64,000 bases of DNA from Candidatus Woesearchaeota archaeon (GTDB lineage Archaea > Nanobdellota > Nanobdellia > Woesearchaeales > GW2011-AR4), in contig JAGVXV010000016.1 of the NCBI GenBank assembly GCA_018303625.1, positions 7,317 to 71,316 of the forward strand, given 5' to 3'. Position 1 is the first letter of the stretch; each line of letters opens with the position of its first letter. Under the pieces are notes generated by a model that saw nothing but the letters and a program-made list of their open reading frames with translations, was not told the DNA's origin and did not search any database. Below are positions 6,595 through 63,887 of this stretch, in pieces. Position numbers and translations under genes: made by a program.

Positions 6595-6619
6595 ACATCT
6601 TGAAAATACAAGGCCCTAT

Positions 6620-6797
6620 GCCGGGATCGCATAACTCGGTATTGCACAGATCCTTTTGGAGTGTAAGCCTGGAATTATGCGAACAGCTCAGCCTGGCCCG
6701 AAAGGGCATCTGGGTTCAAAAAGCGCCTTGCTTTGGCATAGAGCTTTGCTTGTTGCCTGACTTAACACAAGGCGCCTTGAAAGTCCCAGTCCCGGCG
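6620..6797 (+). ncRNA. tRNA-like structured RNA, unassigned (candidate multi-intron class-II tRNA, or tRNA-derived RNA)
   Basis: 5' half GCCGGGA-TC-GCAT-AACTCGGTA-TTGC is near-identical to the D-arm of tRNA-Ser(CGA) at 8693. 3' end has a variable-arm-like GCCC-GAAA-GGGC, T-stem CTGGG, TTCAAAA..[~60 nt]..GAAAGT CCCAG, acceptor TCCCGGC, discriminator G, then T9 terminator. A canonical anticodon arm could not be resolved by eye. Confidence 0.45.
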
Positions 6798-6806
6798 TTT
6801 TTTTTA
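6798..6806 (+). terminator. Oligo-T archaeal terminator after the tRNA-like RNA
   Basis: ttttttttt immediately after the 3' acceptor strand. Confidence 0.5.
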
Positions 6807-6839
6807 ATTTTTAGGAAAGTTATTAGAGGGTTGGTGAAT

Positions 6840-7499
6840 ATGGAAACTAAAAAAATGAAAACAATTTTATTTTTGCTTCCTACATACAAATATATCAGCT
6901 CCAGATGTTTTGTATGCTTTTCTAAATTCTTTTTCAATATAAAAAAACATTACAATGTGAAAATGAGTTTGTGCGAGGGAATGTATATCACATTAGCAAG
7001 GAATAATCTCTCCGAGAAGTATACAAGCCTTGACGAACAACAAAAAAAGGAGATTGATTTGGTAGTATGGATGGATGATGATGTTGTATTTGGCATGCAG
7101 CAGGTTATAGGCCTAATAGAAAAATTTGAAAGCACGGGATTAGATATGCTAAGTGCATTATGCTTTTCCAGGTATAATAAAGAGCCCATGGCGTATACTT
7201 TTGACTTTAAAGAAAAAAGGCCGATAATACCATTGGAAAATATCCGCAATACGGGCATTGTTAAATGCGATGCTGCTGGTTTCGGTTTCTTGGTTATGAA
7301 ACCCGAAGTCCTTGACAAGATGCATGCCTCATTAGGCAAATGGATGTTTAAGACGCCTGTTATGCCCCATGAAGAATTCAAAGAAGGAATCTATATTGGA
7401 GAAGACATCTATTTTTATATGAAAGCAAAAGAATTAGGGATTACTATGGGTGTGGATACAGACATAATTATCGGGCATGATGGAGGGGTTATAGAGTAA
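6840..7499 (+). CDS. Putative glycosyltransferase (DxD-type)
   Basis: Start reset to METKK (GGTTGGTGA SD-like upstream) because the 6600 extension overlaps the ncRNA; VVWMDDDVVF DxD-like motif; GT-A-like composition. Confidence 0.5.
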   Translation: METKKMKTILFLLPTYKYISSRCFVCFSKFFFNIKKHYNVKMSLCEGMYITLARNNLSEKYTSLDEQQKKEIDLVVWMDDDVVFGMQQVIGLIEKFESTGLDMLSALCFSRYNKEPMAYTFDFKEKRPIIPLENIRNTGIVKCDAAGFGFLVMKPEVLDKMHASLGKWMFKTPVMPHEEFKEGIYIGEDIYFYMKAKELGITMGVDTDIIIGHDGGVIE

Positions 7500-7884: not shown

Positions 7885-7928
7885 TCTTAATAATATTTAT
7901 AAATGAATGTTATGTTCTTGGTCTCCTT

Positions 7929-8097
7929 GCTCCCGTGGTGTAGCCCGGCAGCCTTTTTGGCTGGGCAAACAATCATTCGGCCCTCTCGTGTGGCAAACCA
8001 TAAATCGCTTTGCGATTTAAAATCACTGAAGAAAGGCCGAGACCCGAGTTCAAAGAAGCTAAAAGCTATTTTAGCATTGGAAGTCTCGGCGGGAGCA
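7929..8097 (+). tRNA. tRNA-Glu(CUC) with three insertions (D-loop, anticodon 37/38, T-loop)
   Basis: GCTCCCG-TG-GTGTAGCCCGG[~21 nt]CAATCAT-T-CGGCC-CTCTCG[45-nt intron 7989-8033]A-GGCCG-AGAC-CCGAG-TTCAA[~27 nt]AGT-CTCGG-CGGGAGC-A; Glu/Asp-type D-arm; followed by T7. Confidence 0.6.
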
Positions 8098-8153
8098 TTT
8101 TTTTGTTTTTTACATAAAAAAATTTAAATAATCCTAATCCTAAAAATAATAAA

Positions 8154-8692: not shown

Positions 8693-8821
8693 GCCACGGT
8701 CGCATAACCCGGTAGTGCGGCAGTCTCGAAGCTTCAGGCTATGCATGATGTCCGCGAAATCGCAGATTTCGAGCTAACTGCTGTCCGCAAGGACTTCTCG
8801 GTTCAAATCCGAGCCGTGGCG
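8693..8821 (+). tRNA. tRNA-Ser(CGA), class II, with canonical 37/38 intron (~45 nt)
   Basis: GCCACGG-TC-GCAT-AACCCGGTA-GTGC-G-GCAGT-CTCGAA[intron, helix CTCGAA/TTCGAG]A-ACTGC-T-GTCC-GCAA-GGAC-TT-CTCGG-TTCAAAT-CCGAG-CCGTGGC-G. Confidence 0.7.
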
Positions 8822-10010: not shown

Positions 10011-10132
10011 TGCCGCTGGCGATATTTGAAATCACGACCTCTACGTAACCCAGTTAAGCTAAATCATCTCCCTGCGGATCAGAGCTCATAATATATGAGC
10101 GTAGCGCTCTAACCAGGCTGAGCTACAGCGGC
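10011..10132 (-). tRNA. tRNA-Met(CAU), elongator type (G1-C72), with ~47-nt 37/38 intron
   Basis: rc reads GCCGCTG-TA-GCTC-AGCCTGGTTA-GAGC-G-CTACG-CTCATA[intron, helix CTCATA/TATGAG]A-CGTAG-AGGTC-GTGAT-TTCAAAT-ATCGC-CAGCGGC-A. Confidence 0.7.
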
Positions 10133-12835: not shown

Positions 12836-12940
12836 TGGACCGGCCGGGATTTGAATTTCCGAATCACAAGTTTTTACTTGCAATTTCCCGGAGTCTTTCC
12901 CTAGCCAAGGGAACACGATACCAGATTTCGCCACCGGCCC
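12836..12940 (-). tRNA. tRNA-Ala(GGC) with G3:U70 and a ~31-nt insertion between T-stem and T-loop
   Basis: rc reads GGGCCGG-TG-GCGA-AATCTGGTA-TCGT-G-TTCCC-TTGGCTA-GGGAA-AGACT-CCGGG[aaattgcaagtaaaaacttgtgattcggaaa]TTCAAAT-CCCGG-CCGGTCC-A; U37 is unusual. Confidence 0.55.
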
Positions 12941-59699: not shown

Positions 59700-59796
59700 G
59701 GGCCCGTGGTCTAGTCCGGTATGATAACTCCTTTACACGGAGTAGGTCACCAGTTCAAACTGTTAATTAGCCATCATGAAAGTCTGGTCGGGCCCA
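59700..59796 (+). tRNA. tRNA-Val(UAC) with ~22-nt T-loop insertion
   Basis: GGGCCCG-TG-GTCT-AGTCCGGTA-TGAT-A-ACTCC-TTTACAC-GGAGT-AGGTC-ACCAG-TTCAA[actgttaattagccatcatgaa]AGT-CTGGT-CGGGCCC-A. Confidence 0.7.
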
Positions 59797-59797
59797 T

Positions 59798-59884
59798 GCG
59801 CGAGTGATCTAATGGCTATGATTGGGCCTTGCCAAGCAGAAATGCGAAAAGAGGCTCCCATCCGGGTTCGAATCCCGGCTCGCG
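59798..59884 (+). tRNA. tRNA-Gly(GCC) with ~15-nt 37/38 intron; 1-nt spacer after tRNA-Val (dicistronic)
   Basis: GCGCGAG-TG-ATCT-..-TGAT-T-GGGCC-TTGCCA[agcagaaatgcgaaaag]A-GGCTC-CCAT-CCGGG-TTCGAAT-CCCGG-CTCGCGC-A. Confidence 0.7.
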
Positions 59885-59904
59885 CATTTAATTTTATTTT
59901 TGAT

Positions 59905-60005
59905 TACTTTTTAATATTTAAAAAGCTGCGAGTTATCTTGGCGGCGCCATTGACGCGCCGCATCCATAATCGCCACATTGCGGGCGACTATGTTGCGCGA
60001 CATCA
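59905..60005 (+). other. GC-rich ~100-nt element with two look-alike 7-bp GC-clamped hairpins (loops CATTGAC / ATCATTG)
   Basis: GCGGCGC-cattgac-GCGCCGC and GCGCGAC-atcattg-GTCGCGC; stands out against ~30% GC spacer between the tRNA-Val/Gly pair and tRNA-Ile. Confidence 0.4.
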
Positions 60006-60114
60006 TTGGTCGCGCCAAATTTCTTTAAGTTTTTTTATTTTTGAACGAATTTTATAATACTGTTATTTATCAGAAACTTTTAAATATAATGTATTATTCT
60101 TCCAAGCTGTTTTT

Positions 60115-60216
60115 GGGCCCGTAGCTCAGCCTGGTTAGAGCGACGGTCTTATATGGCATCGCTCTACGCAGCTCTAAGTGAGCCGTAGGTCGAGAGTTCA
60201 AATCTCTTCGGGCCCA
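60115..60216 (+). tRNA. tRNA-Ile(UAU) with ~27-nt 37/38 intron
   Basis: GGGCCCG-TA-GCTC-AGCCTGGTTA-GAGC-G-ACGGT-CTTATA[intron]A-GCCGT-AGGTC-GAGAG-TTCAAAT-CTCTT-CGGGCCC-A; anticodon TAT. Confidence 0.65.
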
Positions 60217-61468: not shown

Positions 61469-61616
61469 GCTCCCGTGGTGTAGTCCGGTCTGAAGAAAGT
61501 CCATCACATGATGGTTGTTCTTTCGGGATAACCAATCATTTCGGATTTTCGATCCGAAGACCTGGGTTCAAAGAAGATAAGGTCCATCCTGACTTTAGAA
61601 AGTCCCGGCGGGAGCA
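61469..61616 (+). tRNA. tRNA-Glu(UUC) with ~43-nt D-loop insertion and ~27-nt T-loop insertion
   Basis: GCTCCCG-TG-GTGTAGTCCGGTC[tgaagaaag...ataacc]AATCAT-T-TCGGA-TTTTCGA-TCCGA-AGAC-CTGGG-TTCAA[..]AGT-CCCGG-CGGGAGC-A, then T7. Confidence 0.6.
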
Positions 61617-62219: not shown

Positions 62220-63693
<1,474 letters not shown>

Positions 63694-63770: not shown

Positions 63771-63887
63771 GGGCCCGTAGCTCAACCGCAGAGCGCTGCC
63801 CTTGCACGAAGCAATTCGATGAAAGGCAGAGGCTTCGGGTTCAAAATTAAGGCCCAAGGGCTTTAGATGAAAGTCCCGACGGGTCCA
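63771..63887 (+). tRNA. ITS tRNA-Ala(UGC), G3:U70, with 37/38 intron plus T-loop insertion
   Basis: GGGCCCG-TA-GCTC-AACCGCA-GAGC-G-CTGCC-CTTGCA[cgaagcaattcgatgaa]A-GGCAG-AGGCT-TCGGG-TTCAA[aattaaggcccaagggctttagatgaa]AGT-CCCGA-CGGGTCC-A. Confidence 0.65.

Follow-up and report, generated by a model that had tools for sequence, protein, structure and literature searches.

All 10 tRNA genes that we found in the 64-kb window (i.e. the whole stretch of Woesearchaeota DNA that was analysed) are interrupted, by 16 introns in total, and these insertions are very probably archaeal pre-tRNA introns removed by proteins at bulge-helix-bulge (BHB) splicing motifs. Half of the genes, those of tRNA-Ser(GGA), tRNA-Glu(CUC), tRNA-Glu(UUC), tRNA-Val(UAC) and tRNA-Ala(UGC), carry an intron in the T-loop at position 59/60, and one, that of tRNA-Ala(GGC), carries an intron at 53/54. 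Three introns each are present in the Glu(CUC) and Ser(GGA) genes. The introns are 15-63 nt long and add up to 497 nt, vs 761 nt of exons for the same genes, which gives a density of 1.6 introns per gene calculated on 10 genes only. A first-pass annotation of the sequence had reported T-loop insertions in at least six tRNA genes, and they are indeed present at the places it gave, five of them at 59/60 and that of Ala(GGC) at 53/54. Their location in the T-loop thus holds, but the common site, placed at 'roughly 58/59-59/60', is exactly 59/60. Split or permuted tRNA genes whose parts are joined at BHB-like junctions are known in Nanoarchaeum equitans and in Caldivirga or Thermofilum, with some in DPANN. 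Unlike those, the ten genes of the window are contiguous and colinear, with none split and none permuted.

Standard annotation mishandles these genes, as the first-pass annotation had anticipated. With the raw window sequence, ARAGORN detected none of the ten tRNAs in default mode and four in intron mode, and the Rfam tRNA model at its gathering score retrieved 3 of the 10. Before splicing, the six genes with non-canonical introns all escaped ARAGORN. In silico splicing from the window coordinates yields ten canonical tRNAs of 72-86 nt, each of which ARAGORN recognises in no-intron mode; the cloverleaves are thus canonical without the inserts, as had been proposed. A scanner for genes with a T-arm divided at 59/60, 7 bp in the acceptor stem and a complete 4-bp central helix retrieved four genes in the window, or five if three of the four pairs were allowed to suffice, as compared with 7 hits in 20 shuffles of the window (0.35 each); all its hits in the actual window are complete tRNA genes. 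A broader scan, in which the T-arm could be split anywhere, yielded no further tRNA genes in the window, although it can miss atypical T-arms such as that of tRNA-Met, which is devoid of the G53:C61 pair and escaped the scan.

To describe the junctions, we used a rigid 3-4-3 model in which the BHB motif comprises a central helix (H) of 4 bp, two 3-nt bulges, each cut after its second nucleotide, and at least one flanking helix. The central helix has all four pairs in 11 of the 16 introns (four at 59/60, the 29/30 intron, both D-loop introns, the 53/54 intron and three at 37/38), three pairs in three introns and two pairs in the remaining two. At 59/60, it is complete in four of the five genes and has 3/4 pairs in the fifth, the outer helix is 5 bp long in all five, and three of the five introns form a strict hBHBh' motif, i.e. 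with H 4/4, 5 bp in the outer helix and 2 bp or more in the inner one. The 53/54, 29/30 and both D-loop introns are of the HBh' type, without an outer helix, and several 37/38 introns have two or three of the four central pairs. Minimum free energy (MFE) folds of the Val, Ala(UGC) and Ser(GGA) genes reproduce the stem, the helix of 4-5 bp, the 3-nt bulges and the inner helix, such that the folding of the junctions called for in the first-pass annotation reveals the motif in these three cases; the z-scores of the three inserts range from -2.7 to -3.7. Other excisions that yield the same T-arm have a much poorer BHB geometry than the 59/60 cut. A loose BHB criterion on its own gives many chance hits and is informative only together with the restoration of the cloverleaf. 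Some introns depart from the rigid motif, namely the 37/38 introns of Ser(GGA) (H 2/4) and Ala(UGC) (H 2/4 in a hand count) and the 59/60 intron of Glu(UUC), which has an A-A mismatch; hence, their exact cut sites rest on homology and cloverleaf restoration. ARAGORN was discarded as an arbiter of the D-loop splice sites, as it accepted hundreds of alternative excisions without discriminating between them, and BHB geometry and intron-free orthologs were therefore used instead. The window introns do not belong to the self-splicing group I or group II classes: none matched an Rfam intron family even in permissive mode, and they are much shorter than a ribozyme core, which takes a few hundred nucleotides.

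The frame shared by the T-loop inserts, TTCAAA|...TGAAAG|T, is the BHB motif itself. It had been interpreted as the signature of a uniform 'TTCAA..AAGT family', but there is no special conserved intron family here. The common words are forced by the geometry of the motif, because UGAA must pair with the near-invariant UUCA of the T-loop and the bulges give AA|N and AG|U. Inside, the introns are otherwise unrelated, and within the window a resemblance is seen only between the two Glu T-loop introns, although some modules are common to different tRNAs in relatives. The word TGAAGAAAG, which the D-loop inserts of the two Glu tRNAs were thought to share, is attributable to chance. It has three matches in the window vs 1.36 expected, 15% of shuffles reach three matches, and in Glu(CUC) it is found at 8027-8035, across the 3' junction of the 37/38 intron and outside of the D-loop insert.

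The tRNA-Glu(CUC) gene (7929-8097, + strand) is 169 nt long for a mature product of 75 nt. Its first intron (7949-7968, 20 nt) is located in the D-loop directly 3' of G19 and is of the HBh' type. The junction, CCGG|ACAATCAT, was set by the BHB scorer as the all-Watson-Crick solution (H GCCC/GGGC 4/4, bulges GG|C and AA|A, 4-bp inner helix AGCC/GGCT), and it agrees with the intron-free ortholog of locus L016. The second intron (7989-8033, 45 nt) is at the canonical 37/38 position in a relaxed BHB, with H 3/4 and a 7-bp outer helix made of the anticodon stem and two additional pairs. The third one (8055-8083, 29 nt) is the T-loop 59/60 intron, with H TTCA/TGGA (4/4, including one G-U), bulges AA|G and AG|T and the 5-bp T-stem as the outer helix, but a contiguous inner helix of just 1 bp. 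It has a homolog in locus L011 and is missing from L016 and L049. The spliced product is identified as tRNA-Glu(ctc) by ARAGORN without intron mode and aligns without gaps to the intron-free orthologs of L016 and L049, and all three window introns are clean indels in the alignment with orthologs. Up to three introns had been proposed for the Glu tRNAs, which is correct for Glu(CUC), but the Glu(UUC) gene (61469-61616, + strand) has two. The D-loop intron of the latter (61489-61531, 43 nt), also 3' of G19, was placed by analogy with that of Glu(CUC) and then confirmed by the BHB scorer (H GTCC/GGAT 4/4, including one G-U), and L080 harbours an intron at the same site. Its 59/60 intron (61573-61602, 30 nt) has H 3/4 with the A-A mismatch at position 57, a 3-bp inner helix and a 5-bp outer helix. 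The spliced 75-nt product corresponds to tRNA-Glu(ttc).

The tRNA-Val(UAC) gene (59700-59796, + strand) has a single 59/60 intron (59760-59782, 23 nt) in a strict hBHBh' motif, with H TTCA/TGAA 4/4, an inner helix of 2 bp and an outer helix of 5 bp; the MFE fold displays the motif, and the spliced product was confirmed. In the spacer downstream of the 16S rRNA gene, the tRNA-Ala(UGC) gene (63771-63887, + strand) contains a 37/38 intron (63807-63823, 17 nt) and a 59/60 intron (63846-63873, 28 nt). Its alignment to the Rfam model in permissive mode shows one insert of 19 nt at the anticodon loop and one of 29 nt at the T-loop. The T-loop intron has BHB scores (H, inner helix, outer helix) of 4,2,5 and a textbook hBHBh' motif in its MFE fold (z = -3.2), and the spliced product was confirmed. 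The tRNA-Ala(GGC) gene (12836-12940, - strand) has a single HBh'-type intron at 53/54 (12856-12886, 31 nt), corresponding to the 31-nt insert described in the first-pass annotation at the junction between T-stem and T-loop. Its motif comprises H TCCG/CGGA 4/4, bulges GG|A and AA|T and a 10-bp inner helix, with no outer helix. The spliced product is tRNA-Ala(ggc) with the G3:U70 pair, an Ala feature that had been pointed out and is confirmed.

Classical 37/38 introns had been recognised in the Ser(CGA), Met, Gly, Ile, Ala(UGC) and Glu(CUC) genes, and all six are confirmed. In the four of these genes that have no other intron, ARAGORN in intron mode also finds the tRNA, and the spliced products were confirmed. 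The tRNA-Ser(CGA) gene (8693-8821, + strand) has an intact T-loop and a 45-nt intron (8731-8775) with H 4/4 and an 8-bp outer helix. That of tRNA-Met(CAU) (10011-10132, - strand; 52 bits with the Rfam tRNA model in permissive mode) has a 47-nt intron (10047-10093, boundary possibly shifted by 1 nt) with H 4/4 and a 5-bp outer helix. The tRNA-Gly(GCC) gene (59798-59886, + strand; 42.7 bits) starts 1 nt past the end of the tRNA-Val gene and has a 17-nt intron (59835-59851), and the tRNA-Ile(UAU) gene (60115-60216, + strand; 59.1 bits) has a 27-nt intron (60154-60180) in a strict BHB scored 4,2,5.

We compared these genes with those of 43 loci from related Woesearchaeota species. Among the validated genes of these relatives, the T-arm is intact in 48, interrupted by a 59/60 intron in 40 (from 28 species) and by a 53/54 intron in 4, making 59/60 the dominant non-canonical site (40 of 88 genes). 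The 59/60 inserts of the relatives vary in length from 14 to 139 nt without sequence conservation, and most form strict hBHBh' motifs. Genes with and without this intron coexist for the same isoacceptor, with 8 vs 12 for Ser(GGA), 6 vs 7 for Glu(CUC) and 4 vs 11 for Ser(CGA), counts that are approximate because ARAGORN isotype labels are unreliable for relatives carrying further non-canonical introns. The clearest pair is that of L016 and L020, whose Glu(CUC) exons are identical and differ solely by one 20-nt 59/60 intron. The intron-free orthologs align in the same register; the first-pass annotation had named a failure of its T-loop boundaries in homologs as grounds for refutation. Covariation links position 57 to the first base of the intron pairing block (Fisher p = 0.004, computed on introns whose pair was unconstrained by the selection filter): UUCA occurs with UGAA 23 times vs 3 times with CGAA, and UUCG occurs with CGAA 5 times vs twice with UGAA. 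The motif geometry, the restored cloverleaves, the intron-free orthologs and this covariation are direct observations.

In the splicing route that we propose, UUCA at T-loop positions 54-57 of the pre-tRNA would pair with an intron UGAA located 2 nt from the 3' intron end to form the 4-bp central helix. The T-stem would stack beneath as the outer helix, and the intron body would provide the inner helix. The two 3-nt bulges would then be A58-A59-i1 and i(n-1)-i(n)-U60, and EndA would cleave after the second nucleotide of each, i.e. between 59 and 60. An RtcB-type ligase would join the exons to reconstitute the 7-nt T-loop UUCAAAU, and the intron would be released, probably in circular form. The D-loop 19/20, 29/30, 37/38 and 53/54 introns would make use of the same motif, strict or relaxed (HBh'). 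In this scheme, the enzymes, the circular form of the released intron and the way in which introns spread are inferred. Pfam searches revealed neither EndA nor RtcB among the ORFs of the 64-kb window, and tblastn with the verified EndA sequence of M. jannaschii (1A79) gave no match in the window or in 85 related loci. The splicing endonuclease of this lineage is probably of the alpha4 type with an 'L3' insert (PMC5829648). The first-pass annotation had deduced a relaxed BHB specificity from the conservation of the 59/60 position. The 59/60 introns, three of five of which are strict, do not imply it, but the sequences of the HBh' introns without outer helices and of the 37/38 introns with two or three of four pairs suggest such relaxed specificity; the relaxed-endonuclease inference is needed only in part. 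The 59/60 hot spot would rather be explained by the suitability of the T-arm for BHB formation: as the T-arm is nearly identical in all tRNAs, an intron ending with UGAA and 2 nt fits any of them. This portability, together with intron mobility, would make a single non-canonical site recur across isoacceptors and Woesearchaeota species.

That the inserts remain in mature tRNAs as expanded T-loops or extra arms is hardly credible. They are structured, as indicated by the z-scores of the three folded inserts, but their lengths and sequences are not conserved, orthologs in related species lack them while having identical exons, and their junctions display BHB geometry and covariation. The T-loop and the D-loop of tRNAs engage in a conserved tertiary interaction, and a retained 59/60 insert would break it. 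Decaying pseudogenes or assembly artefacts might be invoked given that standard tools miss the genes, yet this reading is equally implausible in view of the interruption of ten genes out of ten, including that of tRNA-Ala beside the 16S gene. Furthermore, each exon set forms a perfect cloverleaf with identity elements (G3:U70 for Ala, G73 for Ser), the locus is found on at least 23 contigs from independent metagenomes, and the architecture was found again in 28 related species.

Another view is that the introns are genuine but recur at 59/60 by vertical inheritance of ancient introns, with neither mobility nor a fit to the site. The homology of the Glu(CUC) T-loop intron between the window and L011 and the presence of the same Ser(GGA) intron, described below, in eight species are in line with this idea. 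Nevertheless, we consider it unlikely as a general explanation, since the introns are patchily distributed among near relatives with identical exons, as in L016 vs L020, and the isoacceptors that bear them differ between species. Thus, the Ser(CGA) T-arm is intact in the window and interrupted in four relatives, and the intron of Ala(GGC) is at 53/54 in the window vs 59/60 in three relatives. In addition, modules of 28-45 nt with 93-100% identity are common to the Glu D-loop intron of L011 and to Ser and Glu T-loop introns elsewhere, i.e. to different tRNAs and to both positions, a pattern resembling the transposition of introns in Thermoproteales (PMC4090602). Near relatives with identical exons that differ by one intron offer a natural system to study intron gain and loss.

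The introns of the window are ordinary in kind and at documented positions, but they are unusually dense for a tiny-genome groundwater archaeon. Introns at 59/60, 53/54 and 29/30, D-loop introns and triple-intron genes have been published, notably for ARMAN-2 and Thermoproteales, and thus those of the window represent no new kind (PMC3239211, PMC4090602, PMC8450103). A 2018 report (PMC5829648) described heavy disruption of tRNA genes in DPANN, with one Woesearchaeota genome among them. In ARMAN-2 (Candidatus Micrarchaeum acidiphilum), pre-tRNA-Pro(GGG) has introns at 53/54 and 59/60, and the 59/60 intron of pre-tRNA-Cys(GCA) is cut in vitro by the organism's own EndA (Fujishima et al. 2011, PMC3239211); both positions are also listed in a review (PMC4090602). 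The present case has in common with ARMAN-2 a DPANN host, two T-arm positions and BHB-type junctions. In contrast with the few genes, the 13-nt hBH-type intron and the epsilon2 enzyme of ARMAN-2 (PMC3239211), 5 of the 10 window genes are interrupted at 59/60. According to two summaries on Thermoproteales, i.e. Pyrobaculum and relatives (PMC4090602, PMC8450103), these archaea similarly have up to three introns per gene, 29/30, 53/54 and 59/60 positions, HBh' motifs and similar introns in different tRNAs (Sugahara 2008, Fujishima 2010). P. calidifontis has 71 introns in 46 genes, a density comparable to the 1.6 introns per gene of the window (10 genes). However, Thermoproteales are hyperthermophilic Crenarchaeota with an (alpha-beta)2 EndA, whereas the window belongs to a small-genome groundwater DPANN archaeon; the Thermoproteales record thus has a counterpart of comparable density in a mesophilic DPANN lineage. 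In 208 complete Nanobdellota genomes, a survey of 2026 found only 26-54 tRNAs per genome and tentatively ascribed the isoacceptors 'missing' in Woesearchaeales to split genes (bioRxiv 10.64898/2026.05.13.725050). Multi-intron genes, which can be recovered by BHB-guided splicing, are a simpler account of these missing isoacceptors.

One of the introns contains an element of a different nature. The gene at 6620-6797 (+ strand, 178 nt, mature product 83 nt) had been described as a tRNA-like RNA with a T-loop insert; the insert is at 59/60 as expected, but the gene is that of tRNA-Ser(GGA), with three introns at 29/30 (6650-6666, 17 nt), 37/38 (6675-6689, 15 nt) and 59/60 (6721-6783, 63 nt). Their respective BHB scores (H, inner, outer) are 4,3,0, 2,1,2 and 4,2,5. 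ARAGORN identifies the spliced product as tRNA-Ser(gga), and the orthologs located 3' of the S10 gene are tRNA-Ser(GGA) genes, some without any other intron. A large D-loop intron in the D-arm of this gene was considered and rejected, as the orthologs of L011 and L013 have 29/30 and 37/38 introns. Within the 59/60 intron, the block TTTGCTTGTTGCCTGACTTAACA (6745-6767, + strand) is complementary to the organism's own 16S rRNA (gene at 62220-63691) at 63244-63266 (+ strand), i.e. gene positions 1025-1047, roughly 1090-1110 in E. coli. The two form an uninterrupted 23-nt duplex (G-U allowed), vs a maximum of 17 in shuffles, and an exact 15-mer of the match is expected 0.09 times by chance. The block is kept in eight species, with 37 distinct introns overall from groundwater and sediment samples and a match of 17-23 nt. 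For the other 15 introns of the window, antisense matches to the 16S rRNA do not exceed their own shuffle ranges.

Box C/D guide RNAs combine a C box (RUGAUGA) with a D box (CUGA) in a K-turn, and their guide of 10-12 nt directly precedes D or D'. We rejected this identity for the Ser(GGA) intron, which lacks such a C box and K-turn. No RUGAUGA-like C box is present in seven of the eight orthologs, and the lone TGATGA, in L015, is 3' of the block and not shared. The sole CUGA sits within the antisense block and is itself complementary to the 16S rRNA, and the spacing between GAGC and CUGA varies from 8 to 14 nt among orthologs. Inspection of the orthologs by hand revealed no C/D, K-turn or H/ACA features in this intron. 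In Haloferax volcanii, a guide RNA of the box C/D class is encoded by the pre-tRNA-Trp intron (Clouet d'Orval 2001 and Singh 2004, cited in PMC7994747); it is likewise a BHB tRNA intron with a conserved antisense element against a stable RNA, but it has C, D, C' and D' boxes and its own tRNA as the target. The Ser(GGA) intron differs by the absence of a C box and a K-turn, by its variable spacing and by its 17-23 nt of complementarity to 16S rRNA. The excised intron, probably circular, might pair with nascent 16S rRNA in the region of helices 35-37, with some 8-10 nt of the element predicted to be single-stranded and the remainder in a hairpin, and its role might be that of an assembly chaperone, guide or regulator. 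If functional, it would represent a new type of RNA derived from a tRNA intron, antisense to rRNA and devoid of C/D and H/ACA boxes. Tentatively, the 59/60 introns of Woesearchaeota could even be portable carriers able to deliver functional RNAs such as this element, although we regard this as rather doubtful. In the Ser(GGA) intron, each pair of the inner helix has three to four double changes, indicating covariation.

ARAGORN called no tRNA genes in the window with default settings; switching to intron mode gave four (Ser-CGA, Met, Gly and Ile). The Rfam tRNA model found three at its gathering score; its permissive mode added Met and a partial Val, and the permissive alignment revealed two inserts, in the anticodon loop and the T-loop, in the tRNA-Ala adjoining the 16S gene. 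Excision of all the inserts yielded 10 canonical tRNAs, each of which ARAGORN then called without intron mode. The window thus contains 10 tRNA genes with 16 introns. Three introns each are found in tRNA-Ser(GGA) (6620-6797), at positions 29/30 (17 nt), 37/38 (15 nt) and 59/60 (63 nt), and in tRNA-Glu(CUC) (7929-8097), in the D-loop after G19 (20 nt), at 37/38 (45 nt) and at 59/60 (29 nt). tRNA-Glu(UUC) (61469-61616) has introns in the D-loop after G19 (43 nt) and at 59/60 (30 nt), and tRNA-Ala(UGC) (63771-63887) at 37/38 (17 nt) and 59/60 (28 nt). Single introns are present at 59/60 in tRNA-Val(UAC) (59700-59796; 23 nt), at 53/54 in tRNA-Ala(GGC) (12836-12940, minus strand; 31 nt) and at 37/38 in tRNA-Ser(CGA) (8693-8821; 45 nt), tRNA-Met(CAU) (10011-10132, minus strand; 47 nt), tRNA-Gly(GCC) (59798-59886; 17 nt) and tRNA-Ile(UAU) (60115-60216; 27 nt). 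A general scan of the window for T-arms split at any position gave no additional tRNA genes. The gene at 6620, previously described as a tRNA-like RNA, was identified as tRNA-Ser(GGA) from orthologs downstream of the S10 gene, with the T-loop intron excised; some of these orthologs are devoid of the other introns, and the close relatives L011 and L013 served to place its two extra introns.

At the T-loop sites listed in the first-pass annotation, the sequence reads T-stem, TTCAAA, an insert ending in TG(A/G)AAG, then T and the T-stem complement; the Glu-UUC insert ends in AGAAAG, unlike the others. A scan restricted to candidates with this split T-arm, 7 bp in the acceptor stem and no mismatch in the central helix retrieved four genes in the window, or five with one mismatch permitted, against a mean of 0.35 in shuffled windows. 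The inserts are real and far beyond chance. We scored bulge-helix-bulge (BHB) motifs for a 5' exon end a and an intron end b by pairing (a-5..a-2) with (b-5..b-2) as the central helix H and counting contiguous inner-helix (intron) and outer-helix (exon-exon) pairs. The 59/60 introns of Val, Ala(UGC) and Ser(GGA) all score H 4, inner 2 and outer 5, that of Glu(CUC) H 4, inner 1 and outer 5, and that of Glu(UUC) H 3, inner 3 and outer 5. The 53/54 intron of Ala(GGC) scores H 4, inner 10 and outer 0. Alternative excisions giving the same T-arm (56/57 or 57/58, for example) have far poorer scores, and minimum free energy folds of the T-arm regions contain textbook hBHBh' motifs for Val, Ala(UGC) and Ser(GGA).

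Comparison with 43 related loci also identified the inserts as introns. Among validated tRNA genes, 48 have an intact T-arm, 40 a 59/60 intron (28 species; 14-139 nt) and four a 53/54 intron. Across species, the 59/60 intron interrupts eight Ser(GGA) genes and is absent from 12, interrupts six Glu(CUC) genes and is absent from seven, and interrupts four Ser(CGA) genes and is absent from 11. The Glu(CUC) exons of L016 and L020 are identical, and a 20-nt 59/60 intron is the sole difference between these genes. Similarly, the three introns of the window Glu(CUC) are clean indels relative to the intron-free genes of L016 and L049, and the predicted 75-nt mature tRNA is in register with them, D-loop junction included, which upholds the T-loop boundaries initially chosen. 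The Ser(GGA) T-loop intron shows covariation in its inner helix, each pair having undergone three to four double changes. Given these BHB scores, canonical spliced products and intron-free orthologs, the initial interpretation of the inserts as non-canonical introns is right in essence. They are best explained as introns removed by standard archaeal tRNA splicing, in which the endonuclease EndA would cut in both bulges and an RtcB-type ligase would join the exons.

The first-pass annotation also proposed a uniform TTCAA..AAGT family, but the shared words are accounted for by BHB geometry. At 59/60, intron UGAA would pair with T54-A57 (UUCA) to form the 4-bp central helix, A58-A59 and the first intron base would form the 5' bulge, and the final two bases of the intron (mostly AG) and U60 the 3' bulge, with the T-stem as the outer helix. 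This geometry dictates the GAAAGT word for any tRNA; hence, the word is not a family signature. In related genomes, TTCA T-loops are combined with TGAA in 23 cases and with CGAA in three, whereas TTCG T-loops are combined with CGAA in five cases and with TGAA in two, the latter still allowing a G-U pair (Fisher p = 0.004, using only introns in which the filter left that pair unconstrained). This covariation confirms the central helix.

The relaxed endonuclease specificity initially proposed is only partly justified. The 59/60 introns do not imply it, as three of the five have strict motifs and a fourth has all four H pairs. It is rather suggested by the introns at 53/54, at 29/30 and in both D-loops, four HBh'-type introns that lack an outer helix, and by the 37/38 introns of Ser-GGA, Ala-UGC, Glu-CUC and Gly, with only two to three of four central pairs. 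Neither EndA nor RtcB is encoded in the window, and a Methanocaldococcus jannaschii EndA query, checked against PDB 1A79, gave no tblastn match in 1.3 Mb of compared DNA. Alpha4-type EndAs bearing an 'L3' insert are reported from DPANN lineages, where they accompany marked tRNA gene disruption; incomplete DPANN tRNA sets are said to need manual curation (PMC5829648).

Because the T-arm is near-identical in every tRNA, an intron adapted to 59/60 would fit any of them. Consistent with such portability, 28-45-nt modules with 93-100% identity recur in the relatives in T-loop introns from both Glu and Ser and in one Glu D-loop intron, which suggests that these introns belong to a mobile or recombining family; we infer this route of spread for the 59/60 introns. 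These modules, exemplified in different species by CAAATGGTTACGCGCATTTGATACGCAAAG and GCTCGCTTCGCTCGCAA, are located at L011:13170-13259, L053:11977-12072, L061:11824-11914, L073:5322-5554, L050:18508-18539 and L072:14528-14556. This sharing resembles the intron transposition of Thermoproteales (PMC4090602). The Glu(CUC) 37/38 intron (7989-8033) holds a conserved hairpin, CCATAAATCGCTTTGCGATTTAAA; a tRNA gene at L050:4081-4238 carries a near-identical one in its anticodon-loop intron.

The phenomenon is already known in kind (PMC4090602, PMC3239211, PMC8450103). Reviewed non-canonical sites include 20/21, 29/30, 53/54 and 59/60 (PMC4090602). For ARMAN-2, cleavage in vitro has been shown with a tRNA-Cys precursor interrupted at 59/60, and a tRNA-Pro is interrupted at both 53/54 and 59/60 (PMC3239211). 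At most three introns per gene are known. In P. calidifontis, 71 introns are spread over 46 genes (PMC8450103). Thus, the locus adds further examples; the extent of the phenomenon in Woesearchaeota and the predominance of 59/60 have been less well documented so far. In a 2026 preprint covering 208 complete Nanobdellota genomes, each genome is still credited with 26-54 tRNAs and isoacceptors are missing, a gap tentatively put down to split genes (10.64898/2026.05.13.725050).

The Ser(GGA) 59/60 intron contains a block, TTTGCTTGTTGCCTGACTTAACA (6745-6767), that can form an unbroken 23-nt pairing, G-U allowed, with the 16S rRNA of the same window (63244-63266), against a shuffle maximum of 17; 0.09 exact 15-mer matches to 16S are expected by chance. 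The remaining 15 window introns have no comparable match to 16S. The block was found only in the Ser(GGA) 59/60 intron, in eight species between which the intron has otherwise diverged, with match lengths of 17-23 nt and a target around E. coli positions 1090-1110. Outside the window, the block-bearing introns are those of L010, L011, L015, L016, L019, L020, L050 and L086-L128. A T-loop-anchored metagenome scan returned 43 contigs with 37 distinct block-bearing introns, at least 32 of which belong to tRNA-Ser(GGA); as only introns that match the 15-nt core exactly could be retrieved, this result describes distribution and is not extra evidence of conservation. The introns are built alike, with an inner stem of 8-13 bp that covaries and a small hairpin in which the 5' half of the block is held; the ACUUAACA seed is predicted to be single-stranded in at least 92% of folds. 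The Ser(GGA) intron is free of C/D and H/ACA boxes: a C box is lacking, and no K-turn or H/ACA layout could be drawn. The intron may act in trans as an antisense RNA in 16S biogenesis, a role that we consider less likely than not.

The window is archaeal, with a G+C content of 39%, and the same locus is present on at least 23 near-identical contigs of Rifle aquifer metagenomes. EF-1alpha, with 72-84% identity to its counterparts in 80 species genomes, places the host among Woesearchaeota (DPANN; GTDB Nanoarchaeota). Rfam models place the 16S rRNA gene at 62220-63691; relative to the archaeal SSU model, ~18 nt are missing from one helix at 62736 (model positions ~529-546), which fits the reduced rRNAs of DPANN.

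The genes for tRNA-Val and tRNA-Gly are separated by 1 nt (59796-59798) and thus presumably form a single transcript needing precise RNase P and RNase Z processing. The tRNA-Ile has a UAU anticodon and a canonical intron. In archaea, AUA is usually decoded by a modified CAU tRNA. A UAU tRNA-Ile is present in ARMAN-2 too (PMC3239211). Public gene calls and mechanical ORFs overrun the intron-rich tRNA genes (L002:12196-12420, corresponding to window ~7903-8127; ORFs 6600-7499 and 59776-60057), including a 74-aa 'protein' called across tRNA-Glu(CUC); such proteins are probably spurious database entries. Finally, a GC-rich stretch of ~100 nt between tRNA-Gly and tRNA-Ile (59925-60025) is predicted to form a long, imperfectly paired hairpin in which loops containing CATTG recur (126 nt folded; MFE -44 kcal/mol, z = -3.4). 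It has no match in an Rfam search and could be an unannotated small RNA.
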